Source: an uncultured virus (IMG/VR IMGVR_UViG_3300026321_000001)
Lineage: Duplodnaviria; Heunggongvirae; Uroviricota; Caudoviricetes
Length of the DNA stretch: 64,000 nucleotides
Direction: 5' to 3' (one strand)
Virus record (IMG/VR): IMGVR_UViG_3300026321_000001
Positions 19,338-45,000 of this stretch are shown here, in pieces. Positions within the stretch are counted from its first letter, which is position 1. Each line of letters begins with the position of its first letter. The notes under the pieces are model-generated. The model saw only the letters and a program-made list of their open reading frames with translations. It made no database searches and was not told the origin of the DNA. A program made the position numbers and the translations under genes.

Positions 19338-21067
19338 GTAAGGTCGAATTCATAATTAGTTAGGTCAAAACGTACATTATTTCTAGTAAAGTCTGGATTC
19401 TGGTTGTCCCTATCAAATGGGACTGCCGTCATATCAAATCTACCAACAATACTATCCCATTTAAGAACGTTTGAAGTATCTGTTCCACCAGTACCACCAG
19501 TGACAGTTAGGATAACAAGATTGGATGCTAAAGGTGAGTTCTGTGCTTGCACAGGTGCACCAATAGGACCAGTAACGATACATCTGTATCGATAACCAGT
19601 CATATAAGCCAATGCTATTAATGAATATGATGCTGAGTTAGCACCAGTAATATTCGCCCAGGCAAAGCCTCCATCAGTAGAAACCTGCCATTGATATGCT
19701 TTAGTACCATCTTCAGGTTCAATTACAGCAATCAAACTAAAAGTTTGAGTACCACCATTAGCAATCGTGGCATTAGTTGGCTGGTTAGTAATAAGAATAC
19801 TTGGTGCAGCAGGTGGATCTCCACCACCATCTCCACCACCAGGATCTTGTGCCTGACCAATACCTTGATTCGCTGGTATATTTAGTGTTTCTTTTGAAGA
19901 AAGACCAAATATAAATGGGAACTTAGGAGTTAAATAACGATTGGGTCTAACAGTAATTACACTAGAAGCACCCATTCCTGAGTGAGCAGTGCAATAATAA
20001 TAGAGTGTTGATGGTGCATCAGATGCAACAGTTATCTCTGTCCAAGCACCAGCATTACCAGGAACGTTATTAGTTGTAACTCCAGTGGTGTATTCAGTTC
20101 CTCCACTATGAATTCCATCAGAATCAGCGGAGAATCTAAATGGATGTGTTAAATTAGTTGTATCGTGTTGAGTAAATCTATATGTGCTTCCCTTAATTAA
20201 TTCTAAATTAGGTGTTTCCACACCATCAATGAAGAACTTACCATTTGATGTGGTGACATTGTATGTCTTACTCTCCGTTTCATCGTTCCAAATTGTTACA
20301 AAGTAAGCAAAAGTACCGTTTGGATACTCAGGAGTATGACAATAGCGACCATTATAAACATCTAAATGCCTCCCAGGTTTGTCAACGTTGTATTCATAGT
20401 CCTCCATCAACGCACCCTTGGGTGGATTTGCTGTTGTAGTACCATATGCAGGTCTATTTACAGCAATTGATGCATTCATTTGATACCCTGTCTCCATTAT
20501 TACAACTGGAGATGTATTATCTTGAGGTAAATTGTATCCGTATGGACCATATACAGGATACCCATCAAATGATAAACCTAAAATCTTTGAGTGACCGTCA
20601 GGGTGACGCATATTGTCGCCAACGTACTGACTTAAACCATAGTAATCATTATAAGCACCCATCACCTGATTGGCTTTCCAGCAACTTATAAACTCACCAT
20701 CGTGATAATGGTATTGATCATTCTCATTAGGATGACCTCCACAACTATCTTCACCGAAATTAACCATCCCAAAGTTAGCAGTCGCTACCCAATGGAACCC
20801 TACAGGAGGACTACCAAGATCTCCAGCAGAAGGATTGAAGAGTGCAACACCATTTGCTGCTATACCAACAATACCTAATGGATAACTTTGACTTGTTTGT
20901 GTATTATCTCCACCCCTATATGTAAAAGCGTGACTGAAAGTGTAAGTCGCTATTTCATTAGGGTTGTTTGCATTAGGAAATGTCCCACTAGTAACGGGAT
21001 GAGGTAACCCATCACCCGTTACTGTGAGAATGTCATTACTTGGATTGTAACTACCGTTAGCTGCCAT
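19334..21067 (-). CDS. YHYH-domain structural protein with cupredoxin-like and Ig-like domains (577 aa)
   Basis: GIAANGV, D.CGGH....QYHYH, HSKILG..FDGYPVYGPYGY, LD.YNGR...TPEYP.G..AYF. Followed by YYYCTAHSGM and an ITNQP...YQWQ Ig-like domain. Confidence 0.8.
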   Translation of the reverse strand: MAANGSYNPSNDILTVTGDGLPHPVTSGTFPNANNPNEIATYTFSHAFTYRGGDNTQTSQSYPLGIVGIAANGVALFNPSAGDLGSPPVGFHWVATANFGMVNFGEDSCGGHPNENDQYHYHDGEFISCWKANQVMGAYNDYYGLSQYVGDNMRHPDGHSKILGLSFDGYPVYGPYGYNLPQDNTSPVVIMETGYQMNASIAVNRPAYGTTTANPPKGALMEDYEYNVDKPGRHLDVYNGRYCHTPEYPNGTFAYFVTIWNDETESKTYNVTTSNGKFFIDGVETPNLELIKGSTYRFTQHDTTNLTHPFRFSADSDGIHSGGTEYTTGVTTNNVPGNAGAWTEITVASDAPSTLYYYCTAHSGMGASSVITVRPNRYLTPKFPFIFGLSSKETLNIPANQGIGQAQDPGGGDGGGDPPAAPSILITNQPTNATIANGGTQTFSLIAVIEPEDGTKAYQWQVSTDGGFAWANITGANSASYSLIALAYMTGYRYRCIVTGPIGAPVQAQNSPLASNLVILTVTGGTGGTDTSNVLKWDSIVGRFDMTAVPFDRDNQNPDFTRNNVRFDLTNYEFDLT

Positions 21068-24000
21068 TAGTTATCATCGAATATTTGATCTGGGGTGAAG
21101 TTATCAACGGTGGTAGAACCGATGTTGATAGTCAGTATGGCAGATTGAGAGAGTGTTGGAGTTGCACCCGTAGATGTTAGTCCGACTCTAAATTCATCTC
21201 CACCGTCACCCTGGCTAGTAGCAGGTGTAGTGTAAGTAGGTGATGTAGCACCATCAATATTTATCCAAGAGTTAGTTCCGTAATCCTTCTTCTGCCACTG
21301 ATAGTTAATCACTCCACCAGCAGGTGTAGTGGATGCTATTACAGTGAAGGAAGCAGTCTGACCTTGGTTAACGGTTGTGTTAACAGGCTGTGACTCGATA
21401 GTGATGAATGCTTCACCAACAGGAGTTGATTCGCCAGGAGGTACGTACTCAGGGTGGTAAATGTCAATTCCACCATTAACTCCTGCACCTGTAGGTCCTA
21501 AGAAGTCGTCTGCGACAGTAGTATTAACTCCCACAGATGGTTGTACATAACCTTGACCAGCGTTCTTAACGTCAATACGTGCGAGACCAACTAGTGCCTT
21601 GATCTTACCACCGAAACCAGAGGAGGAAATTACATCAACGTTTGGACGTGAAGTGAAACCATCACCAGAGTTGGTGAGGATTGCTTCAGTAATACGACCT
21701 CTTTCAATGTTTGCAAGTGCTTGTGCGTTACGTCCACGAACAGATCCAGTGTATTCGAAGGTAATTAGTGAGTTAGAAGACTCAATTAGAGCAACAGTTC
21801 TTTCAAATTCTTCACCTTCAATTGCTAGTTTGTCACCAGTTTCGATAGGTGGTACGACTGTAGCAGCGATAACGTCAACATCAGAACCAATGTAGGAGAA
21901 TGCAACGAATGTTGAACCCGCACGAGGGACTTCAGAGAAGATTATACGTGAACCAACCAATTCAAAACCGATACCTGGTTCCTGAATAACACCATTTAAC
22001 TGACAAACGATGTTGTTCTCAGGTCTAATCGTGTTGGACTGTACACCTTCAGTCAATGTTAGTGAGTAGAATACTCCACCCAACTTCAAGTTGAAGGAAT
22101 TCCTCAAGGAGTCGAAGTCGAATGAGATGTCATCTAACTGTCTCAACTTACCTACGTAAACACCGTGGAATGTTGAGTTAATTGCAGGTGCTTCAGTGAA
22201 CTGAATGTTATCAGAGAATGCAGTGAACGCTAATGCACCGCCTGGAGGCTGTAGGATTCCGTTCACGAAGATCATCATATGACCTGCGGGATCTGGGAAG
22301 TAAGCAGTACCGTTGTCTTTGGTTAACTTGAAGTTTGTAGTCTCACCATCAAATCCTCTAAAGTATCTTCTTACGCGACCACGTAGTGTCTTAGCAACGG
22401 AGCAAGCACCTCTAAATCCGTAGTCACCAATGATTTGTGCATTCTTAACAAAATCTCCAGCAGTATCACCTAAGTGAATGATCGCACGTAAACCAACCTG
22501 TTCAATCTTCTCGATTCTACCGTAAGCAGTTGTTGGAGTAATTACAACAGCAACAATTGCAGATGTGTATACACTTGGGAAGTTAGATCCAGGAGGGATC
22601 TTAGCAAGTTGATAAGCAACATCACCACCGATTACAGTTAGATCATCACCAATAGCACTAAATCTACCGACCTCATTTGCGAGGTAAACATACTTGTTAG
22701 TAGTATCGTGCTCAGTAACAACGAATGTGTGTCCAACACTCTGACCTGCGTTCTGAAGTTGTATAACATCACCAACCTTGAATGTATCATCTACACCAAA
22801 GTCAGTAATAATATCTGCATATTGGAACCTAGTGATCTCTGTTGAGTGTAAGTATTCACCAAATCCAGGTAGGACGTTGAATGCTTCAACCTCAATAATC
22901 TGATCTGTGACAGAACCGTAGATAACGTCATTAGCATTGAAGTTACCAGTAACAGTCTCAATATCAAATGTTACACGACCTGACTGGTTATCAAGTAGAG
23001 CACCATCATTATTTCGTACGATAAGTGCATTTGCTCTACCAGAATCTTCCTTGGAGTACAAGATATCAGTAGCAATGAACTCACCCATTCTAAAGTTAAC
23101 CAACATTAGTTTGTGCGTAGAAGCACCAACAGTTGCAGTAGCACCAGATGTAGTGCCTTCGATAAGATCAGCAGGAGATAAAGTACCACCTGTGATAATA
23201 ACCTTCATATAAGTTGCATTATCTGTTGCGAGAATGGTTCCCTTGTTAGCGGTAGCACCAGTCTTAACAACTTCCTCACCTTGTACAAAGATCTCTGGAT
23301 CACTAGTAACAGTTATTGGTAAGTATGTTGTATTATAAAGAACTTCAGCGTGGTTATCCTGAACTCTGATTACTTCAGCATATGCTCCAGAGGTAGCACC
23401 AAAGAATATATCAGCAGGTTGTATACCACCAGCAATAGGTGTTGGTACATTACGCTCACCAAATGTTGATGTTGTACGTACAATACCTGTCTCATCATTT
23501 ACAGAGAAACTATGAACTTGCCCTTGAGTACCTGGAGTTAGTGATTCAATCTTGTCTCCATCAATATACTCTGAAATCCATATTAGATTTTCAGTAGTAT
23601 CAGGGTGGATATAGTAAATTGTCCTATCTAATTCATTAATAGCAGCACCTAGAACTGTGTAAGTAATACGATCATATGGTTCGAATATATGTCCTAATGG
23701 TGCATCAATAGAACCATCAGTATTAACATCTGTACCAACGTCTATACTATGCTTAAGGTATAATGTGGGTAGAGTAGAACGATTTAATGCAATATCAATT
23801 AAATGATATAGTTGATTAATCTTATGTACAGCAGTTGCTGTAGGACGATATTCTATATTCTCATATGGCACCTCTTGGTTATAAGCACCAGGATTAACAC
23901 AATCCTGTTCGATTGTATTAACAATAAACTCTTTAGCAGCTTCAGCGTGGAAGATGATATATGTTCTGAATATATTCTGGAACGCTACGAAGTTACCCTC

Positions 24001-27000
24001 GGAATCAAACCAGCTATTAACTAATTCAAGAGTCTTGATGTTACCATCAGTAATTAAATCATATATGAATGCCTTACGGATATCTGCACCGAAGGACTCA
24101 TCACCTGTATAACCTGTATAATTCTGTTTTGTCTTGAAGTATGCTTCACGATCAACATACTGATCATTAAACATCAGAAGTCTCGCTGCCTGACGATACA
24201 TCTCAGGAGCACGACCTAATGTAGACTCAATCAATTCACCTAGAACACGAGCAGCAGATGTCACGTTGTAACAAATACCACCACCAGACTGCAATGCATT
24301 ATTTGTTGCTGGAGCGTTCCTAGTGACAGATTGGTTGGTAAAGTAATTACCACTTCCTGCAGCCGCAGTCTTAATAACGTTAATTGGATAATCAAATAAT
24401 TGAGTAACAGAAGATGCTGTTGCATTACACTGACCACTACCAGCCATATCATAAGTTATTGTTGTATCACGAATTGCAGCACGTTCACCCGTTAACGGCC
24501 ATTCGCCTGGTAGAGTTCTTGCAATACCAGCAATGTATGCATCAGGGTTACCTGCACCAGAACCAAATAGATTGATAGGAATACCCATCAATGTAGTGAT
24601 AGAAGATGCTTGGTTAGAACAACGTGCAGCACCACTACCTGTGTAAGTGGTTATAGAGTTAGATCCAGCAGATATAAATGTGTGAGCATAAGCACCACCA
24701 GTATGTACTGCTGCTCTTCTTATTCCTTTAGTAGTAGCACTTACAAATGTGTGAGTTGTGGTGTTAGTTGATGGAGCAGAGTTTAATACCTGTACATCAA
24801 ATGTATCTGTAGCAACATTGCTAATAGTCATAACCCTATCAGCAAATGGGTCAGTTGCTCTTGGATATGGGTGCTCAGTATTATTACTGTCTTGTGTACA
24901 AGTAAAGACTAAAGACTCTCTATCAAGGATAATACCATCACCATTTTCCCAACCGTGATCAGGTACTGTTAACTGCATAACACCTGTTGTTGGGTTGTAA
25001 GAAGCGTTAGTTACAGTTGTCCTAGTAGGACCTTCAAATTTATGAGCATAAAGACCACCACTACGTACTGCCATTCCAGTAGAACTTACATACTTATGAT
25101 CGTAGGTTCCACCACCGATGATTTGAGGTTTGCTGATTGAATTAGCAACAGCAGACTGGAATACGTGTGTTGTAGTGTTGGTAGAAGGTGTTACATCTAG
25201 GATCTTAACATCAAATGTATTAGTAGTTACATTAGAAATCTTAAGCATTCTTCCAGATGCAGGGTCAGTAGCACGTGGATATGCGTGATCTGACGCTTGA
25301 CCATCTTGATCGCAACGGAATACCAATGCACTATCAGCAATCTTGATGTACTCACCGTTATGGAAGTTATGACCATTAATAGTAAGAGTCATAACACCCG
25401 TTGTTGGGTTGTATGCAGCACCAGTTGGTGTCCAAGTTGTAGTACTACTTACGAAGTTATGAGTTGTAGTGTTAGAAGAAATACCAACGTTGACTGTAAT
25501 TGTTCCATCTGGACGTGTAACTCCACTAGTTGTAGCAGATACGAACTGATGAACAGTCTTATCAAGGTTAGCGTGTCCTACATAAACATCAAATTCATCT
25601 GTAGTTACGTCAGAAATTGGTAGATACTCATCATATGAAGGATCATTCGCTCTAGGATATGAATGATTTGTTGTATTATCATCCTTAGCACAACTGAATG
25701 TGATGGAATTTTCAGCCATCTTGATCTTATCTCTTGAAAGTTCAAGTCCACCAGTAGTTGCAGATACAAATGTATGAGCAGTCTGGTTAGAAATTGGACC
25801 TCTACCGAAGAAATTACCAACGTTAACTTCAAATGTATTGGTACTTGCGTTAGTAACAACTAAGAAACGTTGAGATGCAGGATCACTTGGTCTTGGATAA
25901 GAATGGTTTGTAGCATTACTATCTTGAGCACAAGTGAATGTCAATGAATTATCAGCAATTCTAACTCTGTCACCTTCAACAAATCCGTGACCACCACTTG
26001 TTATCTTCAACATACTGCTTGTTACATCGTAAACAGCACCAGTTGCAGTCTTAGTAACAGAGGTAGTAAACCCGTGATTCGGTATGGTGAGTCTCATCAC
26101 ACCAGTGTTGGGGTTGTATAGAGCACCAGTTACTGTATGAGAGGTATAACCAATAGTATCAATGTTAAGACCACGCTGATAGAATGGATCCCTCTTATGG
26201 ATCATTCCATTAGAAGCAATACCAGTATTTGCGTGTGTGTAAATACCACCACCTCTTATAGCAGATCTAGTAACACAGTTAGCAACAGCACTTATAAATG
26301 TGTGAGCAGAGATGTTAGTAGAAGGTGTAACATCAAGTATCTTAACGTTGAATGTGTCAGCAGTTACGGTACTAATTGGCATCCACTTATCCCAGAATGG
26401 GTCTGTCTTACGTGGATATGTGTGGTTAGTAGCGTGACTATCCTTATCACAAGTAAATGTGAGTGACTCTTCAGCAAACTTAACCATATCACCATCGTTA
26501 TAACCGTGACCAGTTATAGTCACTGTCATTACACCTGAGACAGGATTGTAGTTAATCGCAGTAGGTGTCTTACCTACCTGTTGAATAAACTGGTGAACTG
26601 TAGTATTTGTAGAGGGTTGTGAAGCAAGAACTTGTACAGAAATTTTAGTATCAGTTACAGCAGTAATAGGTACAGCATTCTGATAGGTTGGATCTCCTAA
26701 ACGTGGGTAAGTATGATTAGTCTGGTTACTATCCTGAGCACAAGTGAATGTTAATGAGTTAGCAGCAATACGAATACTCTGTCCAACAGTAAATTCGTGA
26801 TGACCAATCTCCATCTCCATAACACCTGAAGTTGGATTGTAACTTACAGAGTATGGTTCAAATCCTACAGATGGTGTTGTTCCAACATTAACTTGGAATG
26901 TATTAGCTTGAACATTCTCAACAGGAATCCACCGATCGAAAGTAGGATCAGTTGTTCTAGGATATGTGTGGCTAGAACCATTGTTATCCATTGAACAAGT

Positions 27001-30000
27001 GAACGTAAATGCATTCTCCTTGAACTTAACGAAGTCTCCATTAGAGAATCCGTGATTGTTCTGAGTCAATGTCATCAATCCAGTTAGAGGATCATAAGCA
27101 GCACCAGTAGGAGTTGACTCAATCATCGCACCTCTTGGATACGTATGAATTGACTGGTTGCTATCTAATCCACAAGTAAATGATAATGAATTAGGAGCGA
27201 TTCTAATATTGTCGTGTCTGTTAAAGTAATGGTTACCTATTCCAAGTACCATTGAACCTGTAATTGCGTTGAATGTAGCACTAGAAACTGTATGTCCAGT
27301 TGTAGGAGTAGCACCAACGTTAACGGTAACCCATCCAGTCTGTTTCTTCAATCCACCAGTAGTAGCACCAACATAAGTGTGAGCGAAGTTACCACCAGCA
27401 GAAATACCAACATTACAGGTGAATGTATTAGCATCAGGAGTAGAAAGAACTTCTATCCAATGTCCTGCTTCTGGATCATCTGCTCTTGGATATGTGTGGT
27501 TAGTAGCGTTGCTATCCTTAGTACAATTGAATGTAATTGAATTAAGATCAAACTTAACTAGATCAGGTGCAACAGTAATTGTATTTGGATTAGATGCCTG
27601 GAATCTATGCTCTGATGTATCAGATACAGCACCATTAGTTTCACCAGTTCCAACATTAACAGTAAATCTATTTCTATTTGCCTTGCTAACAATCAACCAT
27701 TGATCATAAGCAGGGTCAGTTTTTCTTGGATATGAGTGATTAGAACTGTATTGATCTCTTGCACATCTGAATGTAATAGCACCTTCAGCAAGTTTAATGC
27801 TATCACCAACTACAATATTATGATTTGCACTATAGATCTCCATATCACCTGTTGTTGGATCAAACTTGGCGAAAGTTGGAGATGCTGTACGTGCAGCTCT
27901 GAATCCGTGGTTAGCAATAGTACAAGATAAAATACCACTTGTAGGAGTATAAGATGCACCAGTAATAGTATGAGATGTAGAACCTGCTTCCTTCATCTGT
28001 AAAGCAGTGTTTCTAGCAGGATCAGACATACGTGGATACACGTGCTCTGAAGCGTGACTGTCCATATCACAAGTGAACTTCAATGACTCATCGTGAATCT
28101 TAATGGTTGTTCCTTCCATTAAGTTATGAGCACCAACTTTCAGTTGCATATCACCAGTCTCACCATCATAAATGGCATCACCAACGCTATAGAATATAGC
28201 AGGAGATTTACCAACATTGACAGTAACAGAACCAGACTCTAATTCAACACCATCATCAACAGCAGAGATGAACTTATGACTGTAATTACCACCTGTTGTT
28301 ACACAATTGTTAGTAGCAGATACAAATGTATGCTGTGTTACGTTGGTAGATGGAAGTATTGGAAGAACGTTAACTGTTATAGAAGTTGCAGTTGTACCAG
28401 TAATAGTCAAAGGATTACCATATACAGGATCAGAAGACTTAGTAATGCAGTTAACAGCAGCAGACTTGAATAGGTGAGTGTAGTTACCACCAGTTGTTAT
28501 ACAAGCAGGTTCTGCACTCTTGAAGATATGAGCAGTTGTGTTAGAAGAAATACCAACATTAACAGTGATTGTATCATCCTTCTTAATAATTCCATTACTC
28601 AATCCACTAACGAATGTGTGGTTAGTTGTATTAGTAGATGGAATAGTATCCAATACTTGAACAGTAAATGTAGTTGAACTACCAACAGACTGAACTTGAA
28701 TCCACTTATCACTAATTGGGTCAGTTGCTCTTGGATATGCGTGGTTAGTAGCACCACCATCTTCAGCACAATTAAATGTTACTGCACCATCTCTTAACTT
28801 GACATAATCACCAACAACTAATCCGTGAGCAGCAGATGTTGTGATATTAATAATACCAGTAGCTCCACTGTAAGTAGTACCAGATGCAGCAGTCAAAGGA
28901 GTACCTTCGTACTTGATTTCGACTGAAGAATCAAATGCTTGGTCTTTCTTAGCAGTTAGAGAACCAGCAGTAGAGGAAACATAAGCGTGTGTGTAAATAC
29001 CACCAGCTCTAAATACTGCTCTTGAAATACTATTAGCAACAGCACTTACAAAGTTATGAGTTGTAGTATTGGTTGAAGGTGTATTCTCTAGAACTTGAAT
29101 ACTAAAGGTATTAGCATCGATGTATGTAATAGGTACAAACTTATTAGATACAGGGTCAGAAGCACGAGGATAAGCGTGATTGGTTTGATCACTATCTTGA
29201 CCACAAGTAAAGGTTACTGCACCATCATCAATCTTGATATATTCACCATTAACAACACCGTGGTTAGTAACACTAAGAGTCATAACACCCGTTGTTGGGT
29301 TGTATGCTGCTGATGTTGGGGTTAACTTAGTAGGAGCAACCCAAGTATGTGGAGTTGTGTTAGTTGAAGGAACAGTGCTTAGAACCTGAACTGTAATTGT
29401 AGTATCAGTAACAGCAGTGATGTTACAAGCAGTATCATAGAATGGGTCATCTTGAGTAGCACCACCTTGACCTGAAGCACGAGGGTATGTATGATCTGTA
29501 GCGTAGTTGTCAAATCCACACTTGAATTTCAGTGAATTTTGAGCTATTCTTACAGATGTACCAACGGTTAAGTCGTGAGTACCAATGGTCATAACCATCA
29601 ATCCTGTTGCAGGATCGTAAGTTACAAGTGAAGGATCATAACCAACAGAAGGTGTCTTACCTACGTTACAAGTAAATGTTGTGTTACCAGTTACATCAAT
29701 CTCCAACCACTTACCAGATACAGGGTCAGTTGAACGTGGATATGGGTGGTTAGAACCATTACCGTCCATAGAACAAGTAAATGTAATAGCACCATCAGCA
29801 AACTTAATCTTATCTCCATCCTGGAGACCGTGGTTAGCAGCAGTTGTAATAGTGATTATTCCTGTAGCAGGATCATAAGCACCGTTATTAATGTCAGATA
29901 CTGTATAGGTTGTATTTCTTGGATATGGGTGAAGAGTTTGATGACTATCTTGTGCACAAGTGAAGGTTATGCCACCTTCAGCAATCTTAAGTGCAGTTCC

Positions 30001-33000
30001 AGCAGTAAGGCTGTGATCACCAATGGTTAGAACCATATCACCAGTAGAAGGGGTGTAAACCACATCTTTTGGTGTGAAACTTACAGCAGGAGATATACCT
30101 ACATTAAAGGTGAATGTATTTGTAGAAACTGCTTCAATCTTCATCCAAGAATTGTTAGCAGGATCATCTTGTCTAGGATAAGAGTGCTCAGAAGCGTGTC
30201 CATCCATAGAACAAGTCATTACTAATCCATCCTTCTCAACTTGAACCATCTCACCAACCTTGAATCCGTGGTTAGCAACAGTAACAGTTAAGTGACCATT
30301 TACAGGATTATATGAAGCATCAGTTGGAGTTGCATTAACAGTTGTAATTCTTGGATATGTGTGGTTAGTAGCATCATCGTCTTCCTTACAAGTAAATGTT
30401 AAGGAGTTAGGTGCTAACTTAATATGAGTACCAGTTGTTAAACCGTGCACACCAAGTACAAGTTCTAAACCACCTGTAGTTGGGTCATAGTTTGCTTGAG
30501 ATGGAGTAAATGTCTTAAGTGGTGTCTTACCAATATTCATCTCAAAGGTGTTCTTAGTTACACTTGAAATGGGTAAGAAACGTCCACTAGCAGGGTCAGA
30601 AAGTCTTGGATATGTCTTCTTGCTATAATGCTCATCCATATCACAACTGAATGTCATAGAGTCATTAACAAGTCTAATCTTGTCACCATTTTTGAATCCG
30701 TGACTAGGAACTGTAACATTCAGGAATCCAGTAACAGGGTTAAAGTTAGCCCAAGTAGCAGTATGGAATGTAGTTCCGATAGCTTCAATATCAATTGCTT
30801 TATCGACTACTGGATCAGTAGAACGAGGATACTTATGAATAGATCTATAATTATCCTGAGCACAACGATAATTTAACTCACCCTCAAGAATCTTAAGTGT
30901 TTGACCAGTCCTTAGACTATGTGATCCAATATCAAGAGTTAATAAACCTGTCTCTGGATCATAGGTAGAATCCTTAGCATCAAAGTTAACTCTCTGAGTT
31001 ATACCAACATTAACTGTGACATCATTACCACTTACATTAGTAACTGGTAGTAATGAGATGGCAGCAGGGTCGGATGTTCTTGGATAAGAGTGTTGAGTTT
31101 GATGATCGTCTTGATCACAAGTGAAAACAAGTGAATTTGTGTTAATTCTAAGTGTATCGTTGGTAGTTACACCGTGTGATGCAGCTAAGGTTAAGACTAA
31201 AAGACCAGTTGCAGGATCATAAGTTGCTGCTGTTGGAGTATGTTGACCAGAAGCAGTCTGTTGATCGATAGTAATTGTCTGATCATATACTGGATCACCT
31301 TCTGTATAACCGTTAGTGGTTACCAATTGCTGTCTCATTACCTGAATAGCAATGTCACGTGCCTGTTCAAAGACGTACTTAACTTCAGTAGACTGAGAAT
31401 TAATATGCTGAATAGCATTAGCATCAGTAATATAGAACTCAGTTGCATACCATAGTTTGTTGTTACCACCGTGCTTAAGGTTGAATACAGTTGCTTCTAA
31501 GATGTCAACAACGTCATCAACACAACTCTGATAACCATATCCACCGAAACCTAATGTTGGATACTGAGAAACAGCACGACCAACAGCAGTAGAAGCAATG
31601 AATCTTATATTTTTCTCTATTTCATTACCAGCATCATAGAACTTGTTACCAGCTGCTCCATCTCCTGCGGCATTAAAATCATAATTGTTCCGTGGAGGAT
31701 TAGATGCTTCATCAGGGAAGGGATTAAACCCTAACTTGTTCTGGATGGCGAGTGCTGACATATCTCTAGCCATCTTCATAGCAAAGAGAGTTTCTTCTGT
31801 CTCGTCAGTAACGTGCTTCAATCCATTCTCAGTATTGAGATATAACATAGAAGCATCATATACAGCAGAGTTAGAACTAAATCTAAGGTCGTGAATAACA
31901 CCTTGAATTACATCAACGATATCATCTTCACAATGGTTCTTACCACCTTTAACACTGAAGTTTTTGTGCTTGAATGCAGAACACTTAAGCATAAGAGCAA
32001 CTGCTTCACCAGCAATAGCACGCTTGTTAGTTTCAAGCATATCAGCAGCATCTAATTGACGCTGAGAACCTGCATAGATCTGATTGTCGTGTGTGAATGT
32101 TGGTTCAGTTGCTTGATCCTTACGATATGCAGCAATATCTGTATACTGGAACTGGAATAAGTCATCAATAGTCTGAGCATTCATTCCTGCAATATTAGCA
32201 AGGTTCTCAGAACGTGAGACAAGAGCATTTTGCAATGCTTTCTCCATCAACATCTTAGAATAACCAATTGCATCAAGCATTGGTAGCAATTCTTTCTCAA
32301 CTTCAATGATCTTCTTCTGAGGATCTAAGTATCGATCGATTATGCCTTGTACATTAGAGTTACCACCAGTTAATAGGTCACCAGCAATAGCAGGTATGAT
32401 GTGATCTCTAAGGTCACGAACACACTTTTCACGACCTGGAGTACCACCAGGAATGTCAAACTTATCTTCTTGAACGAAGTTAATAGTTACGTTATACTGT
32501 TCTTCTAACCAGAAAGCTACTTCATCAGCGATACACTTACGGTTGAAGTATAGTAAATCAGCACCGTCTCTAAATCTATTACCTGTAGGACCAAGAACTA
32601 GTAGTAAATTATCTACTATATCAGTGATAAAGGTCTGTATACCAGCAGCCGCAGGAGATGAGAAGTAGTTAGGAATACGAATACGTGTTGTATGCTCACC
32701 AGTTAGGTCATCAGCATTAGCAGTAATAACATCATTACAGAGTTTACCAACTTCTCTCCAAGCATAGATCGACTGAAGTAGTTCTCCATTAACGTGTGCT
32801 AATTGACCAGCCTGGTTAGCAAGATATCCTCTACCTGCAACGATGGTATTATAGTTACCACCATATCTAAGGTCAGCAACAATAGCAGGAATGATATACT
32901 CGTAAGTATCTCTCAAGCAAAGTCTAGTACCTTCTGAAGATGTACCAGTATCACCAGGTATCACAAAGTCAGGATACTGAGCCTTCATCCTACCAACTGC

Positions 33001-36000
33001 TTCCTCAGCAATCCAGTACTTGTTCTTATCAATCATATCTGCACATTCTCTATACTCATCACGAGCAAGATCAACCCCCTCAGTCATAATCTCATCACGC
33101 CATAGTTCTACACCATCAGCAGTACAGGTAGAAACAATTGATTGCTCATACTTAGCATATATCTCACCTTTAATAATAGGAATAGGTGCTTCACCATCAA
33201 ATCCAAACTTAAGATTGATATCTGTATCATCATAAGTTGAACTAGGAGTAAAGTCACCAGTATAATCTATTGCTGTGATACCTAATTTAATCATTAGGTT
33301 CTCCATATTACCTGTCAATCCCTGAGCATTAGAAGCGTTAGCACCAATCTTGATTGGTAAATTACCGTAGTTAGTATTATCAGTATATGTTGTAGTTACC
33401 TTAGTACCACCAACGAATAGACTAGTAACACCACTATTACGTACAACAGCGATATGTGTCCAAGTATTTGCTGTTAGTCCAGTAGAAGTTATCCTATCAA
33501 CATTACCAACGTTCCAACGAACACTGTTGTTAACAATCATCAAATATGCTGAACCTGTATCCGAAGTTGAAGTACGGAAGTCAAGAATCATCTGGTTAGT
33601 ATTAACAGCAGTTACCTTAACCCACAATTCTATAGTGAAGTTACCATCAGGGATTCCACCATTACCAAATGCAAGTTTCTCAGTTGCAGGATGTGTAAGG
33701 TATGCACTACCATTAAATTCTAATGACCCAGTACCAACAGCATAATCTAAATTATCAACTGTGACACCAGTATTAGTTAAGAGACTATTAGTAATGTATT
33801 CTCCAGCTTGGAATGGTGCACTAGGATCCTTAGTATAGATCCACTTGTTACCAGCATTAGAACCAATAATCTCAGCAGTTGAACCAGATGTTATACCTTT
33901 AACAGTTTCACCGAAGACGAAGAATCCACCAGAAGACTTATCTTTATAAGCCATCTTGACAGACTTAAGTGTCTCAGCGTCATTAAATGAATATGCAGGT
34001 TCAACTCTTGTTAGATTACTAATAGACCACTGATAGGTAGCAGGTGTTGCTCCAGTAGGATCCTGAATAGAATCAGTAATAATAGCAAAGAAGTTTGTAA
34101 GAGTAGATGTTATGCTTACACAAGCAGTTGTAGATGGATTAGCCAGTACAGCACCAGTTGGAATTGTCTTAGTAGTTCCAGCAGCAAATGCTGTATGAGT
34201 TCCAGGAGAAGCAGTAGTACCTAGGGCATTAATCACTAAATCCATCAGGGTGGTTATTGTTGAACCAACTGCATTACATACAGGTGATCCAGTATCAACA
34301 GTGATTCCACTATCAGTAAACTGTGTCCAACCGTGTGAACTATCTTGTTTAGCAACTACAACGTTCTTCATAACGTCAAGTGCCATAGTCTTCACTTTGG
34401 TATAAGCGTGAACCATCGTATCGATGTCACCAGTTACAGTACCGTACTGTAATGTTCTATAGGTTGATTCGTAGATATGATCATTACCACCAAGAGCAGT
34501 GTTATATGATAATGCTTCAACAAAGTCAACAATATCACTTAAGCAATGAACATCTCCACCAGTTACTGTATAACCAGGATTCTGTTGCTTGGCATAATAT
34601 AATGCTTCGTGAGCAATGTACCACTTGTTAGCAAGTAATAAAGTTCTAGCATCAGCGTGACTATTATCAGTTGCAGTATACTCACCAGTAATTGTAAGGT
34701 CTCTCCACTGCTGCTTAGTAGTATGTGTCGTATTAATATTCTCCATCCTGACACACTGAATAGCAAGATCTCTTGCTTTGTTCATTGCATAGACTGTTTG
34801 AGCAACAGCACCATCAACGTGATATACAACGTTTCCTTGTACGTAAGTATTAGCAATATCCCAAACTTCAGAGTTACCGTCAAACTCTAACTGCCAAGCC
34901 ATCATATTAATGGCATCTACAATATCATCAATACAATCTTGATTTCTACCTGTATTGATTTGGAAAGAGGGGTAGAAAGCCAACATTATCCCTACGGCTT
35001 CTTCAGCAATAAAGTCTGCATTACGTCTTAAAGTGTTAGAAGCATCACCACGTCTGTTATCGTGTTGCCTTCTTAGAGAAGAGTTACCAAAGTATAACTT
35101 CTTAAGACGAAGGTTACTACCAGCAGCAAAATCAGTACCAGTTAAGTTATCATAACGAATCTCTTGGTTACGAACTCTTTCAAAATCTAGGAAGTCTTGG
35201 TTGTTTGCAGTCTCAGGATCATATAGTTCAACAGGGTTAATAACTGTCTCAGAAATATTATCAAGAATAATATTCGGGAATGTAATTGAAGGAACCCTCT
35301 GGAATACAAGACCAAAGAAAGAAGAACTAGGTGATAGGTCTACCTGATCAATAATCTGGTTGGATATATCATCCTGATAAGGAGCAATGCTAGTAATAGT
35401 TGCACATATCTTAGAACGTGTAGAATAGATGATATCATTGAACTTAAGATTAAATTCTCCAGTTTCAAACTCAGCAGTACCAGATGTACGTGAAACAACT
35501 AGTTCAGTAGTGATAACACCATCTGTTAAGTTGTTTTCCTCAATAATAGCGAACTTACCTTGTAAATTAGTAATCCTTTCACTTTGTTCAAAGATAGTCT
35601 TAGAAGTAAGACCACTTACATCAGATAGGACGGAATTAAACCCAGTAGCTGATCCAAGGATATTTTCATTGATTTGGAAGGTACCACCAGTGATATCAAT
35701 AACATCAATGTAATCAACACCAGAATCTATAACCGTAGCAGTAGTTTCAGAAACTAAACCCCTAACAGTGTTACCTAAGAGTGGGAAGATACCACCAAGT
35801 TGACTAAATGTCATTCTAGTGATCAACTTCTGTGCATAAACCAGCTCACGGAACTTAATCCTAGAAGGTGCTTTAGGTGCTTCAGTAAAGACTACAGAAG
35901 GACCAGAAGTAGAGAATGCAGTACCAGGAGACTGTGCAACACCATTGAGCAGAATAAACATCTGATCTTCAGTTGCTGTGATGGAACTACCCTCAACATT

Positions 36001-39000
36001 GAGAGGGAACTGGGTTTTAATCCCATTAAAGTCATCAGAAATATTATCAATCTTCTTAACAATAGAGGTTAGAATTTCCTCTGAGTTAGTTAATCTCTTC
36101 TGTCTGAACAGTACCTCAGTGTTATTGAACTGGGTATATATGGGTTGTGCGTTAGCAAAAGATGTAATTTGGTTGATATTAGTGAAGGAGTTGATATTAA
36201 CCTCTTTAATGAGGTCAGATACAACCTTTCTTCCAGAAATATCCTTACCACCAGTAATTGCTAGTTCACCGAACAGGTTAAATCCAACAGGGTGGTTTGT
36301 TTCTAGTACAGGCTTTCTCCACTGGTTAATAGGTGTTTGAGACTTAATAACGTAAGAGAAGTTCTGATAGAAGTAAGAGTCTTGTATTTTCTGAACAATT
36401 TCAGATGGTTTACCAACGTCATCGATAAATTGACCAGGTGTATTGGTTAGAGATGCAATATTCAGTGTACCAGTAGCGATTGATAGGTTATCAATCAAAC
36501 CAGATGCACGAGAAACCTCACCAGTTACACGTTCACCCTTTGTCCAAACACCGTCATAGTTCTCAAGTTTAAGGATTCTAGGTCCAATCTGCCAACCTTC
36601 GTTAGTAGAAACGTAACCAATTGCAGATGATAGTGCTAATGATGTACCCTGATAGACCTTTTCACCTTCTAAGAACCTAGAAGTTTCAACGATAGCAGTT
36701 GCTTTACCACCAAATACCTCGGTGAGTAATACTTGTCTACCTTCACCTTGAGTCAAGAATGTGATATAAGAACCAGATTCAGCATCTAATTTAGTAAGTG
36801 ATATACGTAATTGGTCAGATTCAAGTGAATTTGCCTCACCAGCGATAGCATAGTAGATCTGAGTCTCAACCAAGCTAGTTAAACCAGCAGAACTTGGTTT
36901 TGGTAGGATACCTACAGTAGATCCGAGATCCTCTGCACGTAAAGAGACTTCAGCACCAGTTGTGATGCCGTGTGGGAAGTTGAACTGTAAATAACCTAAG
37001 TCAACGTTAACAACGTAGTTAAATTCTGATTTAAGTGTAACCGAAGGTTCAGAACTGTATCCTGAGCCTGGATCCTTAATAATAACCTCAGATAGACGAT
37101 TGTTCTTAACAATTGCCTCTGCTTTAGCACCAGAACCACCACCACCTTCAATTACAACAGCGGGAGTTGAAGTATATCCAGAACCTGGGTCAGTTATCTT
37201 GATCTGTGCGAGTAAAGCGGTATTAAACAGCTGAAGGTTCACAGGGAAAGTTATTTCAGGTCTCAACGTATAATCGTGAGAGTAACCGAAACCAAACTCA
37301 TTATTCTTAAGTTTCTTGATCTTACCGATTGATTTACCTTGTAAGAACACAGAAGCACCTGATCCTTCATCAGGAATCACAACTTGTAAGTCTCCACCAG
37401 AACCAGCAAGTAGAGAACCAAGGATACCTGGAATTGCATCAATATCAATAGTTGCAGACTTATATCCCTTACCAGCAGAAGTTAGGGTAACATCAGTGAT
37501 AACTCCTTCAAAATCACCGTCATCTTGAACAGTGATGTTACAAGTAGCACCTTCACCGTCTCCATCGATAGGAACGTTGTAGTAAACACCATTTACATAC
37601 TCAGTACCACCGTTAAGGATACGAACCTTCTCAATCTCTCTATTAGAAGCGATATCAGTAACAATTGGTAGTCTCTGATAGAATCCACCTGGGTTTACCA
37701 GTTTAATAGCAGATATTGGACCAATTGCCTTGGCAGAAGTCGTTGAGTAGGAAGAACGAGGTAATTGGAACTCATTGTTACCAACAGGAGCATTAGTCTT
37801 CTCTGGCTCATTTAACAGTTTAAAGTCAAATGTTTTACCAGCATTACTTGTTGCAGTTACCCTAAACGTTCCTTTATAAGGAGTTGATATAACGTCAATG
37901 AAAGATCCTTCACCTACAGGAGAAGTTGCACCTGTCCTTGAAGGGTCAAAATAGTATGAAATATTAGTAACATCTTCATTAATGACAAATTTAACCAACG
38001 GAGTTGGTGAATCATCATCAGTAAATCCTGGTGTACCCTCTCTAATAATGTTAATAAACGGATATTCCAGCTTAAACTGGTTATCCCTAGAGAATGATAA
38101 GTAATATCCTAAGTTTGAATTGTCATCAAGGTCAAATATGTACTGATGACCTCTAACAAAGAGGAATTTAGGATGTTTAGCGTATATATTGACATTAGTT
38201 ACTGAGGAACCACTACCAGAGAAGGTTGGCTCTTGTACAGCAGTAGATCTCATACGGAAGGAGAAGTCTCTTGAATTAAAGACCTCTTCTACGAAGAATG
38301 AACCGTTATAATCGTTTGTAGCAAAGTTTTCAGTGAATATGATATCACTCACTTCAAAGTTATGTCTACTAGAAGCAGAACAATAAACTAGATCAGTATT
38401 AGCAAGTGCTCCACTAGGAATAACATCCTTATTCAGTTTTGCAATCAAGGATATCTTCTTAACACCAGTCAAACCAGTGAATGTTGCAATCTTACCAGTA
38501 GCATCAACAGCAAACTGAAGGTTTACAGCATCAGCATCAATAGTATCTCCTTTAATAAATGAGGAATCGCTATAGATCTCTTCAATCTTTATAGTATAAT
38601 CAACTGCTGCAAAAGGCTTCCAAGAAGCGAAGGTTGCTAAAGTAGATCCACTATATGAAGTATCTGCAAGGTCTACCTCATATATACCAGATGCAGACAG
38701 ATATGCCCAAGAAACAGCACCATCAGACACAATACCAGTTGTATGTGTAGGTGCAATAGTACCAGATGTACCAGCAGAAGTACACTGATATAGCTTCTTA
38801 TCGTTGTAAACGATGTCTTCTACAGCATATACAAAGTTAGTTGCCCAAATTGGGTCAGTCTTTTCCTCTGTAAAGTTCCATTCTAGCTCGTTTACATCAC
38901 CGTGAGTCGATTTTAGTAGTTTTGTTTGGTCAAATGTACCAATAATCTTACCAATCTTACAAGAATTGACTCCAGTCTCAACAACTACACCATATGCAGA

Positions 39001-42000
39001 TATTACATCGTTGCCACCAATGACTGAATACTGTTGTAAAGTGGTTCCTTTAGTGAATGATGCGTTCTGATTGAACGTAATTGTCTTAACTAGGTCAATT
39101 TGGGAATATTTTGCGTCTCTAAAGTAGAATTTCGGTACAACAGTAGTTGTAAGAAGTAGTTTTTTACCACCAGGAGTCGGAATAGTAGCAGTTCTGTTAC
39201 CAAATGATTGATCTGTCGATGTATGAGTGAATACACCAGGTACGTGAGTTGAAATAACATCACCATAATCAAGTATTTGAATACCAGCAGGACCAATCTG
39301 CCAAGGATTCATCGCTACGTTCTGGGTATTAAACGTATAACTGCTTGTGGCGGCGACGTTTAGGGTATGTCCTGTCTCAACATCGTTAAGAGCAAAGGAT
39401 CCAAGTATTGTTTTCTCCTTATCAATCTTGTAGATAAAACCTTGAGCAATATGACTAGTACCTTCTACAACATCAGGAGCAGTAAATGCTTCAGTGTACT
39501 TAGCACTAGGTGAAATAACTGCATTATCAATCCATCCAATCCAATTATTAACTGAATTAGGAGTACCATCAGGACCAATACTAACGTCCTTCATTGAAAC
39601 ATCAACAGTTGTACTGGTAAGAACCTGTGCTTCAATACCATTAACATATAAGCGATACTTGTAATCACCAACTCCAACACGTTCCTTACTAAAAGCAACG
39701 TGAATAAATGCTTCGTTATTAAAGATAGCAAAGTAGTTAGCAGCAGTAGAGAATGTAGTAGTACTGGTTAGATCAATAAATGTCTTACCAAAATTAGGAC
39801 TTGTTGAATCTGCATCAAGACCAATCTTAACTGTATTACCAGTATTATCAAGTACACTGAAGAATATTGGTTTTGTATTAGAACCACTATACTGAGCAGT
39901 TCCCATTGCCCAGAATGCTTCACAAGTCCAACTAGTAGCTACATCAGCACCATACTGAAGAGCAAGAGAGTTAGATGCGTCTAACTTAACAGAAGATGCT
40001 CCAACGTGCTTCTTAGTATCATCAATTACAGCGTTACCAACTGCATACCAAGCTTTGTTAGTAGCAGTAGCAAGAGTATCATTATATGTGTCATCAAAGA
40101 GATTATCAGCAGTATCCCAGTTAAAGATTGCTAACTGATCTGCTTCCATCTTATTACCAACAACAACTGTATCACCAGAACTGTCGTTAGCAACTGCAAC
40201 TGCCTTAAATCCAATACCATCAGTTTCACTTGCAGTAGCAGCAGATATTACTGTACCTGTGTTCCAACCGACTTTGATAGTTGTTGATTCAATAGCATTG
40301 AAATCTCTCTGTACAGAAGCAGATACGTCAACATTACCAAAGATATCAAATTGAACACCAGCGTTCTCAACACTCTCGTATGTACCAGTAGGAATAAAGA
40401 GTCTACTTTGATCAGTACTACTAAAGTCAGACCCCTCATCAAACTTAGAGTATAATACACCATAATTCTTACCATTTACATCAATAGCAGTTGCAGTTAC
40501 ATAAACTGCACCATATTCATCAATGGTGAATGTTGGGTTTGCAAACTTATATGAAGCATTGGTAATCTTCTTAGACCACACAACTTCAACAGTTGCACTA
40601 TCATAATAAGTCTGACCGATAATAATGTCACCAGTATTATCAGGTTCTGAGATACCACAGAAAAGGAACGTATCCTTAGATTGCCATTCAATCTGATGTA
40701 AATGCTCACTAACTGAACTAGAAGCGATCTTACGCTTCTCCATCATAGAACCATCAATATCTAAAAGTGCAACCCACATATCATCTGGTTGCAGGGAGTT
40801 AGCATCGGTATAACCACCGATCATAACTCTACCATCTTGATCTAGACTAACAGTAGTGGCGTAATCGCGTCTGGTGGAACCAGATATACCAGCAATATCA
40901 CGCTGCCATTGAATAATACCATCGGGGTTATTAGCGTTATCGAAACCTGAAGTATACTTGGCAACAACAATATCAGGGTTGTGTGTCAAGTTTATTGTGT
41001 TAGTAACTGTCTCACCAACAACATAGATGTTATGAGGATTACTATTCTCAATATGAAGTGACTTCCACTTCAGTGATTTTGCACCAGAAGGTACTGTAGG
41101 TACAAGAGTTCTCGTCCAAAGAACCCTACCATCACTGTTAAACTTAGAAAGAACACCACAAGTATCTCCACCAGTAAGATTTCTCTCACCAACTACGTAG
41201 ATAGTACGATCATCCGCAACTTGAACATCATTTATAGAAACAATACCAGTAGCTTCCTTCAAGAATGATAAGAAGTAAGTTGCTTTCTTATATCTCTGTG
41301 GATGTGATACACGAATCTTAGGTGGATTCACTGTACCATATGCAGAACCAGAGTTGATTATATTTGCTTCCTTAACAGCACCAGCTTCAGTTCTCACCAA
41401 TTCCAGTTTAAAATCTTGTCCAACAGTTGAAATTAGTTCATATGTTGGAGGAAGTTCTGAAGAATAACCAATACCATCCTGAGTGATAGTTAATTGCTCA
41501 ACACCAGATATAACTTTAACTCTAAGTGTTTTGTTAGTGTCATCAAGGACAGGTGTGCTATCAACAATGATTTCATCACCAGCACGCAATTCGTGCTCTT
41601 CTGGAGTTGTTATACGTCCATATGGCTCATCATTGAGCATATAAGATGAATATCCAGCAATAGCAAGACCTGCAACAGAATTGACCTTAGCAGATGCACC
41701 AAAACCTTCTGTACCTTCATTATCAAAGTATAGTTTGTCACCAACCTTATAAGAGATACCTGGGTTCTCAACGACGAATCCATCAACTTGAGCATCCTCA
41801 AACTTGGTAGTAGTCTCAATATCGATATCAACCTCAGAACGAGTAGATACTCTAGGGTAGTAATCAAATAATTGTAATACGGGTTCTTCTGAGATATTAA
41901 TTGGTGTAGTATCTTCAAGATTGTTTATTACACCATCTCTGTTAGTATCTTCAATTTCAAAGATAAGTTCTTCACCAAGTTCAGTTACAAGGATATCTGT

Positions 42001-45000
42001 CTCAGCATTAGGCTGACGATCGATATCAATGTCAACATCCTCGTAAGGATCACGATAACGGACAACATCATCAGGGATATTAGTCTGTACAGCATCCTGA
42101 CTGTAGTTCCACTCATCTGCCTTAGAATATAACTGAGGACCAGCAATATATGGGAATACTGGGTTACCTGCGTCAGATGCGTCAATAGAGATGAAATATG
42201 CGTATACACCTTCAGGGAACTGAGGTGTCTTACAGAAACGACCATTATACTGGTCTAAATCACCATACTGGAAGGTATACTCAAAGTCTTCAATGAATGA
42301 ACCAGCAGGATATGAATTAAGTACAGGACCATCTAGACGGACTGGATTTGGGTTAGTCGCAGCATCATAAAGTAGAATTGGCTTTATTCTGTAAGAAGAT
42401 CTTATACGACGTACACCAGAAGACTGGTCAGTAGCATCTATGTAACCGTAAGGACCATAAATGGGGTTACCATCAAATGCCCATCCAAGAATAGGTGAGT
42501 GTGCCCATCCTGTAGATAATTCTTGTAATTCTTGTGTTGATTGGTTTTTGAATACATTATCTCCAAGAACATACCTTAATTGCTTAGGATCTGATACGTG
42601 AGCGTATTCACCACCATATTGAGTGTTATATCCCGCAAATACGTAACCACGTGCTGTATCGAAAGATAGACCTAACTCATCCTGTAGGTTTCTTGTCCAC
42701 TCGAATACATTAGCGGTAAATGTTGCCATTTCACCGACTGCTTCTAATCTAACGGATGTTAACCCAGTTGTATAACCTATACCTCTGTTAACAACAGAAA
42801 CACCAATAACTTTACCTCTATCCTCTCCAACAGTACCAATAGATGCTTTTGCAACAGCACCATAACCATCACCATTGATTACAATCTCAGGAGCAGTGGT
42901 ATATCCCTTACCAGCAGCAATAATAGCGATTGAAACGATACGACCGTTAATGATAATTGGTTGTGCAACAGCACCTTCACCAGAGTTTAATTTGATTGTA
43001 GGTGATGTAGTGTAGGAAGAACCTGCACTAGTTACACTTACAGACTTAATTGGACCTCTAACAGCCGCAGTTGCGGTTGCACCAGTACCACGTCCACCAG
43101 ATATCGAAACATCGGGTTGTGAAGTGTATCCTTGACCTGGGTTTTCAACCAAAATCTTACTTACTACACCGTTAGTAATAACAGCGGTAGCAGTAGCACC
43201 GAATCCATTACCGCCCACGATACTAACAAGAGGACTGCTAAAGTAACCAGAACCCCCTGCGGTGACATCAATTTCACTTAATTGTCCATCTACAACAACA
43301 CTTGCTGATGCACCAGTTCCACCACCACCTGTAATTTCAATGAGAGGAGGGAATGCAGCATCATATCCTTTACCAACATTAGTGATGTTTAAACCAGTTA
43401 CACCACCAAACTTAATTTTACTCTCTGATCTATAAGACCAAGCAGATACACCATTAACCCACGCACCAATAGGTCCAAACGTAGTGTCTTCACGTTTGGA
43501 TATGGTGTTGATTACTCTAGGAATACGAATTAATTTACGCTGGTTACCTGGAAGCAGTGCAGATCCTACAAAAGGACCAACTTCATAGTTTGGTATACCA
43601 GATGATGCAATGTATGAATACGTATTATTGAAGAAAGTATTCTGTACGTTTGTAGTAAAATCTCTAATTGCAATGCTAATTCCTTCTTCTGGGGACTTAC
43701 CTTTGTTCAGATCAACTGATAGAAGGATATTTCCAGCAGGTGCAGCGTCAGCAGGTGCAGGAATACTATACTCAAAGATGAAATCGCTGATACGAGATGT
43801 TACTAAGAACGTACCATTGAACACAGTTGGGTTTGCACCATAGATTGTAACGGTATCTCCAACCAAAAGCCCGTGCTTATTATCACAAGTTACGGTTGCT
43901 GTCTGATTATTAAGACCACCAGGTACAACACCACTGATCTGAATCAGTTTCTTAACGTTATACAGCCAAGATGTGACACGCTGATCTATAGATGTAGAAC
44001 CAAGAGATGCAACATTTAGTTTGTCACCAGGTAAGTAGTATGATCCTGTGTCGGTCAGTACAGTGGATTTTGCGTCTGCAATACCCAAAACACGCATTTT
44101 GATCTCATTACTAAGACCCTGATTGACATATACGTAAATTTCTGAGTAAATTGCAGTACCAGAATCCCAATCTTCTACAACACCATTCTTAGAACGTGTA
44201 CATTCAATGAACTGGTTAAGAGTTTTCTCTTTGTATTGAACCTTCTCATTGTCATTAATGAGGATTGTTCCGTTTCTTTCAGGCCAACCAATAGTAGAGT
44301 CAACCGTAATAATCGAATCTGTAGTGCTAAGTTGCTCTACCAGAGTAGTTTTGTAAGGTATAGTGAACTTACCTTGTAGTGTTTCTTCAGATATTGCAAG
44401 TTCATACACAATACCTACACCAGTATTGATCGCAATAACGTTCTCAATAAGTGCAGATGCCGCTTGTACATTGATATCTACTGCATCTACGTACTGAATT
44501 AACTGTGCATCTAGAAGATCAGCTGGATCTCCACTCAAAAGTTCTGCACGAAGGACTGTATCTACGTTCCAAGATGCAGCAGAAGGCTTGATAACCTCAT
44601 CTTTTGGATAGGATACATCAACATTCTCCGAGAACAGCATCTTAAACAGGTACTGTGTAGAGATCTTTGTACCTTTAGATGCGTAGAAATCACTAATAGT
44701 CTTGATAATTTGCGGAGCATTTACCTTTTCATAGTCAATTTCCGCATTAGGAAGGTACTGGTTTACGTATCTTCTGTATAATTCCTTAGCAAAGAGTGTA
44801 TCTAAGTTAGAAATAATAGATCCAACTGCGTGGGAAGATTGAACTGTATCTGATTCTTTCTCAAATACTTGGTTGCCTTTTTGGTCAAAACTGGATACAC
44901 CAGAAACACCACGCTTACAATTTACGAATGCAGATGGTTCATATCCAGAACCTGCATTATGAATGGTAAATCCAGTGATCTCACCAAATCCAACGTCACA

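Follow-up and report, generated by a model that had tools for sequence, protein, structure and literature searches.

The 64,000-nucleotide record IMGVR_UViG_3300026321_000001 of an uncultured virus (IMG/VR; Caudoviricetes), called the window below, contains a giant open reading frame (ORF) on the minus strand (21067..46791) that encodes a protein of 8574 amino acids (aa) in the gp7 slot, the place of a baseplate wedge protein. Since this protein carries a block of related beta-rich repeats, many of which break off part-way, the question arises how such a chain is to be read, namely (i) as a tandem array with damaged members or (ii) as a set of domains whose missing parts follow elsewhere in the same chain. 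From our point of view, the second reading applies: the block very probably consists of 21 copies of an approximately 98-residue, eight-stranded beta-barrel that were recursively inserted into their own loops. An initial annotation, made from the nucleotide letters and their translations, had proposed such a nested arrangement of 21 repeats for positions 24640-31250, and the following paragraphs consider how much of it holds. All features of the block and of its flanks lie on the minus strand.

The number of repeats and the extent of the block both held up. A 98-position hidden Markov model (HMM), built from nine contiguous copies and run against all 8574 aa, returned 26 matches, every one of them within aa 5183-7352. 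Nine of these are full and 17 partial, and the partial profile ranges (among them 3-84, 3-75, 3-59, 2-28, 30-85, 31-98, 57-98 and 74-98) are complementary, as in the pairs 1-59 and 57-98, 2-28 and 30-85, and 3-75 and 74-98. A further 11 short pieces were assigned by eye from their motifs, namely seven last strands of the type GG.Y.H.F as well as two first halves and two second halves of the hairpin in part B of the repeat. The resulting 37 pieces can be parsed legally under a last-opened-first-closed rule into 21 units with a maximum depth of eight, the stack being empty at aa 7375, and this parse places the whole nested block at 24667..31245 (aa 5183-7375, 2,193 residues). The closing order claimed at the outset was likewise confirmed by this HMM-based bracket check, as the parse is balanced and not a single legal order occurred among 200,000 shuffles of all 37 pieces, nor among another 200,000 in which the 16 continuation pieces were shuffled within their own slots. 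When the pieces of each unit are summed, they amount to 97-115 residues, compared with 97-105 in contiguous units. Altogether 12 of the 21 units are broken at one or two sites, drawn from four loops between strands, namely those after profile positions 28, 59, 75 and 84; the fourth kind of site, after the HGF motif at position 28, is used by units 12 and 18. When 14 short segments were scanned singly against the HMM, 11 aligned in the expected profile range, with scores across the scan from -1.3 to 13.2 bits.

Read as a tree, the parse is rooted in unit 1, which hosts units 2 and 21 and whose opener (30997..31245; profile 1-84, aa 5183-5265) and closer (24667..24735; profile 85-98 with GG.Y.H.F, aa 7353-7375; HMM 91-98 at 1.3 bits) contain the first and the last residue of the block, so that the last strand of this unit lies 2,087 residues after the rest of it. 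Unit 2 opens at 30769..30987 (profile 1-75, aa 5269-5341), holds unit 3 in its B hairpin and unit 11 before its last strand, and is continued at 28207-28260 (profile 76-84, a piece that the HMM misplaced) and 25030-25080 (profile 85-98). A chain of hosts then leads from unit 3 via units 4 and 5 to unit 6. Unit 4, which had been singled out as the example of a split repeat, behaves exactly as described: its opener (30343..30513; profile 1-59, aa 5427-5483) ends in HTYPR at aa 5483, and its remainder (28315-28440; profile 57-98, 26.6 bits, aa 6118-6159) appears once units 7, 6 and 5 have been closed. The closed nest of unit 4 spans 28315..30525 (aa 5423-6159) with units 5-10 inside, of which units 8 and 9 occupy the deepest level, the eighth. 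The nest of unit 6 within it (28513..30093, aa 5567-6093) hosts unit 7, itself host to units 8 and 9, and unit 10, in the order opener, unit 7 with its two guests and its closer, first half of B, unit 10, and second half of B with the last strand.

In the other large branch, unit 11 hosts units 12, 14 and 20. Unit 12, together with the complete unit 13 that interrupts it behind HGF (profile position 28), spans 27364..27978 (aa 6272-6476), and unit 14 forms a closed nest (25444..27309, aa 6495-7116) that contains units 15-19 and uses all four insertion sites; here unit 14 hosts units 15 and 18, unit 15 hosts units 16 and 17, and unit 18 hosts unit 19. Units 16 (26581..26868) and 20 (25150..25440) are contiguous in the window. 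With two or three children each for units 1, 2, 6, 7, 11, 14 and 15, the parse is that of a branched tree.

Whether this arrangement is a property of the window or of a wider family can be judged from its relatives. We compared 14 viral-contig loci with 48-100% identity, and those at 68-100% identity show an identical series of full and partial matches. The comparison of nesting trees across related phages, which had been suggested as a check, hence found the tree kept at this range of identity, and whole-unit gains in the locus with 48% identity (L012), for which 25 units were counted by hand compared with 21 in the window. The L012 orthologue of unit 20 (L012:12260-12961) carries a complete extra unit near position 22, the unit being contiguous in the window and in the locus L004, and the orthologue of unit 16 (L012:9830-11152), contiguous in the window as well, holds two units, one nested in the other, at 28|29 and a further one at 59|60. 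L012 and the window thereby form a natural presence/absence series of insertion events. Inside the window, the nests of unit 6 (527 aa) and unit 14 (622 aa) are collinear at 47-48% identity and differ in one extra unit nested at an inner position, which indicates that whole closed nests were duplicated. The best-conserved DNA repeat of the block (25453-25509 versus 28522-28578, 82% over 57 nucleotides), which comprises the closers of units 14 and 6 made of the second half of B and the last strand, is in line with such a duplication. As DNA copies within the block are only 60-86% identical, the duplications are old. The key closer residues do not vary among the 13 rows of orthologues and paralogues.

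The same grammar recurs in further proteins. In P-HM2 gp7, split, full and remainder matches follow each other as 4-28, 3-98 and 32-96, and in ORF 101 of Syn1 as 3-79, 2-98 and 72-97. The family is narrow, as among 1.84 billion cluster representatives searched with the profile only 701 proteins reached E <= 0.001, the top match being a protein of 4764 aa (P0002) with six modules at aa 279-4090, whose nests are interleaved with helical modules resembling those of the window protein. Each of these modules (6/6) contains three openers, of which two open near 84-87 and one near 75, one full unit, one piece corresponding to the second half of B, and three His-strand closers. At the level of sequence, the P0002 modules are independent support for taking the short His strands as the putative missing last strands. 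A divergent representative of 4057 aa (P0105) has ..GITTT.FPDGT.. where ..H.YPR.. is expected, together with opener runs that end near profile positions 44-46, just past the Cys, and are followed by stacked ..V.VG.S.I.H.Y..GG closers, which looks like nesting at a different loop.

To what extent the split units can be seen as closed domains was approached with structure prediction. For unit 12 with the inserted unit 13 (205 aa, 12 alignment rows), AlphaFold2 (AF2) gave a model with a mean predicted local distance difference test (pLDDT) value of 88.4 and a predicted template modelling score (pTM) of 0.79, in which the 27-residue N-terminal piece stands at pLDDT 90-94. The unit-14 nest (622 aa, 13 alignment rows) was modelled at a mean pLDDT of 81.7, with its closers in strands (block pLDDT 66-92). 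In both models every unit, whether split or contiguous, shows eight strands in the same order and a 3-10 turn after strand 4 when its pieces are read in parse order, and in the model of unit 13 the insertion sites 28, 59, 75 and 84 sit between the predicted strands 2/3, 5/6, 6/7 and 7/8, respectively. A two-chain prediction with the unit-4 opener (aa 5423-5483) and closer (aa 6112-6159) scored 0.36 compared with 0.00 for the best control, with at least 69% contact agreement and a partner pLDDT of about 50, and gives weak support. Of 157 solved complexes, 116 attain the mark used, compared with 2 of 215 mismatches, a calibration that is rough here as our own alignments were used; at scores of up to 0.60, wrong calls outnumber right ones unless the pairing was likely beforehand.

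As regards the fold, the best VIA-align match of unit 13 is the first catalytic cysteine half (FCCH) domain of the ubiquitin-activating enzyme (E1) UBA1 (9mc4_A; Z 8.0, root-mean-square deviation (rmsd) 2.5 A, 79 residues). A second FCCH structure, 4p22_B, has Z 7.7, a head-to-tail protein of phage FCWL1 Z 7.5, and the barrel inserted in the phi92 endosialidase Z 7.3. The top matches comprise FCCH domains, phage barrels, barrels like EF-Tu domain 2 and FAD-binding barrels. With Foldseek, the 205-aa model has UBA1 and UBA6 as top matches in the Protein Data Bank (PDB), at a probability of 0.98 but an E value of 0.015, and no PDB match at E 0.001; for the 622-aa model the same search gave nothing beyond generic beta-rich multi-domain proteins at template modelling (TM) scores of about 0.1. 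A sequence search of the PDB found no match at E values up to 1. The Pfam family E1_FCCH (PF16190) reaches 34.7 bits over the whole sequence compared with a cut-off of 29.5, with no single stretch passing and the best one covering profile positions 3-25 of 70. As such, the resemblance of the modelled unit to the FCCH beta-barrel of E1 enzymes is borderline.

Several observations weigh against reading the block as 21 self-inserted barrels. The placement of 11 of the 37 pieces was made by eye, and in the single-segment scan two of the 14 segments (6178-6195 and 6477-6494, both second halves of B) aligned elsewhere on the profile and one (6836-6857) was not reported at all, while the closers of the range 85-98 score near zero against the unit HMM. 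An automatic stack parse of 150 listed representatives matched 67 continuation pieces and left 112 unmatched; this parse is crude, as many of the proteins are fragments, short closers go undetected and its 'depth' values are artefacts. It found at least one matched continuation in 50 of the 150 proteins, with the matched breakpoints near position 28 in 43 of 67 cases and near 55-59 in 15. On the structural side, the model of the unit-14 nest has a pTM of 0.49, the FCCH match lies at a level where best Z values of 7-8 are common for models without a true match, and the closure of split units in three dimensions was judged from strand order and pLDDT instead of contacts, which makes it an indirect indication. 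The proposal of recursive insertion hence stands at the level of sequence, where the type-matched balanced parse, the duplicated nests, the relatives and P0002 all speak for it, and receives indirect support for three-dimensional closure from the AF2 strands.

Among the other explanations that can be imagined, the weightiest is that the nesting is shallower, that units ending at position 84 are already complete, that the GG.Y.H.F segments are linkers or additional edge strands, and that just the splits at 28, 59 and 75 are real, which would reduce the depth to about four. The 85-98 closers indeed consist of a single strand each and score just -1.3 to 1.6 bits, with one not reported, and many representatives contain runs of 1-84/87 matches without HMM-detected closers. 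We nevertheless regard this explanation as unlikely, as seven units are open after position 84 and exactly seven closers of the GG.Y.H.F type exist, which are placed as the stack requires and interleaved with larger closers. In unit 12, moreover, a closer of this type directly follows the ..NVG strand, in P0002 the His-strand closers equal the openers in number in all six modules, and the closer of unit 15, with Gly-Gly, Tyr and His invariant in 13 rows, is modelled as strands at pLDDT 69-92. Finally, the count of 21 of 21 units for the His of the last strand is reached only with these closers included.

Since a T4 virion contains its baseplate wedge proteins several times over, open half-domains might also be closed in trans by a neighbouring protein copy, in the manner of domain swapping, and nothing that we computed separates closure in cis from closure in trans. 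Against this quite improbable alternative stand the confident monomer models and the strict last-opened-first-closed order within one chain, which closure in cis requires and closure in trans does not need. The last rival, a decayed tandem array in which the partial pieces are non-complementing remnants of deletions, is close to refuted. Decay is conceivable given the age of the DNA copies, but the shuffled orders never parsed, the piece lengths add up to one unit, the pieces are kept in orthologues down to 68% identity with their key residues invariant, the grammar returns in P0002, P-HM2 gp7 and Syn1, and the partial pieces have high pLDDT. Recursive self-insertion is thus strongly supported, on the strength of the sequence data, as the best explanation by far.

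If the block did arise by recursive self-insertion, each interruption would hold complete copies or complete nests, after which the host copy resumes, and the pieces of a split unit would come together in cis as a single barrel. Growth of the array may have proceeded through the repeated insertion or duplication of modules that were closed and able to fold, with four loops as permissive sites. With closed modules every intermediate would stay foldable, and since each insert returns the chain to its start, the flanking baseplate fold could stay put despite some 2,200 added residues. The product would be a branched cluster of barrels in which two crossings of the chain join a child to its parent. 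The initial annotation had expected a branched, tree-like appendage in place of a linear fibre; the branching is present in the parse, and the physical form in three dimensions is so far indirectly supported. Purely by inference, the tree is probably an outward-facing appendage of the baseplate that serves host-surface contact or spacing.

Each unit moreover carries a conserved set of four residues. A strict motif, [FY].C..D(3-6)H.YPR, matches 19 times in the ORF, and with a looser motif the Cys/Asp/His loop is found in 20 of 21 units, unit 3 having Lys at the position of the His. Over the 21 units, Cys and Asp are conserved in 21 each, the His before YPR in 20 and the His of the last strand in 21 (with the GG.Y.H.F closers counted, as stated above), and none of the four varies among the nine contiguous units. 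In the unit-20 orthologue of the locus L013 (L013:12800-13093; L014 is alike), the Cys..Asp..His.YPR loop is lost, the unit is eight residues shorter and Trp replaces the last-strand His, a joint loss of all four residues that is expected if they form one site. Two of the inserted units of L012 lack just the His before YPR (position 55). One could imagine that the Cys, the Asp and the two His residues form a single site, possibly for a metal, which would fasten the final strand onto the loop that follows strand 4. The near-invariance of these residues that was noticed at the outset is hence confirmed at 20-21 of 21 units per residue, and their suggested role as a metal site is a plausible prediction from this conservation.

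The nesting could extend beyond the barrels. Seven helical modules flank the block (31327-35046, aa 3916-5155), of which H4, H5 and H6 lie directly upstream of it (31327..32580, aa 4738-5155), and three candidate closing helices follow it (24205..24666, aa 7376-7529). Against a 161-position profile built from only three modules, H2, H3 and H7 are complete, and coverage stops at the first 66-116 positions in H1, H4, H5 and H6, which are without the last helix; for H4, H5 and H6 each, the match covers only about the first 66-98. Two stacked candidate closing helices follow H2. Of the three helices after the block, two align to the region of the last helix (3.3 and 5.8 bits) and one fails to do so; a control segment scored 2.2 bits. 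It is tempting, yet doubtful, to regard the block as the innermost insert of H6 in H5 in H4, with their last helices following the block in reverse order, which would make aa 4738-7529 one excursion of approximately 2,800 residues with at least 11 levels, leaving and rejoining the baseplate protein at a single point, and the barrel a dedicated 'self-inserting' building block with which cyanomyoviruses grow branched, metal-clamped, multivalent host-binding trees on a baseplate under structural constraint. If this speculation is true, self-insertion would be a mode of growth unlike that of the tandem-repeat fibres of other phages. In two places (34210-34665, aa about 4035-4190, and aa about 4582-4632), helical modules give sub-threshold matches to the Pfam family 'Phycobilisome protein' (PF00502; 20.5 and 18.2 bits compared with 22.2), which probably just reflect a resemblance of helical bundles, curious as they are in a cyanophage.

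The gene setting tells what kind of protein carries the block. A gp25-like gene (48904-49311; phrog_261/43) and a gp6-like gene (46820-48904; phrog_219) precede the giant ORF, which comes next, and a gp8-like gene (14196-15731; phrog_438) lies further downstream, where the neighbourhood also encodes a 2403-aa phrog_358 protein; the small plus-strand ORFs of the region are all embedded in the giant ORF. The order gp25-gp6-gp7-gp8 is that of Prochlorococcus phage P-HM2, S-RIM8 agrees for gp6-gp7, and in both phages the giant gene is annotated as gp7. The giant ORF itself matches PHROG families 701, 18802, 2885, 5342 and 1276, which comprise virion structural, baseplate wedge and tail-fibre families; with Pfam it matches YHYH and two Laminin_G_3 domains, and Baseplate_wedge at 16.1 bits, under the cut-off of 27. 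Two downstream ORFs of 577 and 624 aa (19334-21067 and 15767-17641) have PHROG families in common with the giant protein (phrog_701, 2885, 708 and 4406), which suggests that pieces of its N-terminal region also exist as separate genes.

In tblastn searches of phage records with the block, 328 records matched, each at less than 60% identity and including the genes annotated as gp7 in P-HM2 and S-RIM8; by organism name they comprise Synechococcus (248), Cyanophage (49), Prochlorococcus (22) and Marine (9). A megablast search of the region against phage records found no near-identical DNA. From these names and the gene order it follows that the window belongs to a T4-like marine cyanomyovirus. 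Matches in BFVD are to cyanophage 'baseplate wedge initiator', tail-fibre and structural proteins (best E value 1.6e-18), and a full-text literature search, with subscription-only papers outside its coverage, found no description of a nested architecture in cyanophage proteins.

Among known systems, the closest by position are T4 gp7 and the cyanophage 'gp7 baseplate wedge initiator', which share the place after gp25 and gp6 and the PHROG match to a baseplate wedge subunit. T4 gp7 is likened here by gene position, and the window protein differs from the cultured gp7 proteins in length, with 8574 aa compared with 4454 in P-HM2 and 6395 in S-RIM8. Should the very large proteins in the gp7 slot of marine cyanomyoviruses be branched trees of domains instead of fibres, this would bear on the interpretation of baseplate density in cryo-electron microscopy and tomography and on where host-recognition surfaces are sought. 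For annotation, too, there is a warning: software for tandem repeats or for domain calling will divide these proteins wrongly.

By fold, the unit is most like the FCCH domain (PF16190) and comparable small closed beta-barrels; FCCH is the best structural match of unit 13 and itself an inserted domain in E1. It differs from FCCH in that the sequence likeness is confined to the HG..GD.V.. stretch (profile 3-25 of 70), and the Cys/Asp/His/His set and the YPR motif are, to our knowledge, not features of FCCH. A second likeness is to the endosialidase tailspikes of phages phi92 and K1F, in which a small barrel, which binds sialic acid, is likewise an inserted domain of a host-recognition protein. 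Residues 255-340 of 4hiz_A align at Z 7.3 with an rmsd of 2.5 A over 84 residues, and endoNF and K1F are also among the Foldseek matches. Unlike the barrels of the window, that of the endosialidases is a single, non-recursive insertion, and no sequence similarity to it was detectable.

By architecture, the nearest analogue is Si3 of the beta' subunit (RpoC2) of cyanobacterial RNA polymerase, in which one small beta domain has also been inserted repeatedly into its own copies. There, too, remote stretches of the chain combine into several of the domains, and the array as a whole is an insertion that brings the chain back to where it left. The crystal-structure report on Si3 of T. elongatus describes eight sandwich-barrel hybrid motifs (SBHMs), SBHM-2 to -5 being built from distant regions (PMC10895346). 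A 2026 survey of 2.7 million ECOD domains names Si3 as its deepest and most complex example, with six levels and eight domains (PMC13114784). The block differs from Si3 in having 21 domains on eight levels (11 with the helical modules) and four insertion sites per domain, as known from sequence and models, and in belonging to a virion baseplate protein instead of an enzyme. Its best matches, moreover, are FCCH-like barrels, with no SBHM or hybrid-motif entry among the 50 best matches listed, by which an SBHM is not excluded. We conclude that the block has the same kind of architecture as Si3 in a different class of protein, probably with a different fold, and with more copies and more levels.

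Recursive insertion as such is already known, with six levels and eight domains as the extreme in the published survey (PMC13114784), but in the window one domain family attains 21 copies on eight levels within one chain. The system also poses a question of folding, as the last strand of a barrel is made more than 2,000 residues after the first. As the related loci differ by whole units, they offer a rare system for asking how a protein can grow by self-insertion with no unfoldable stage on the way.

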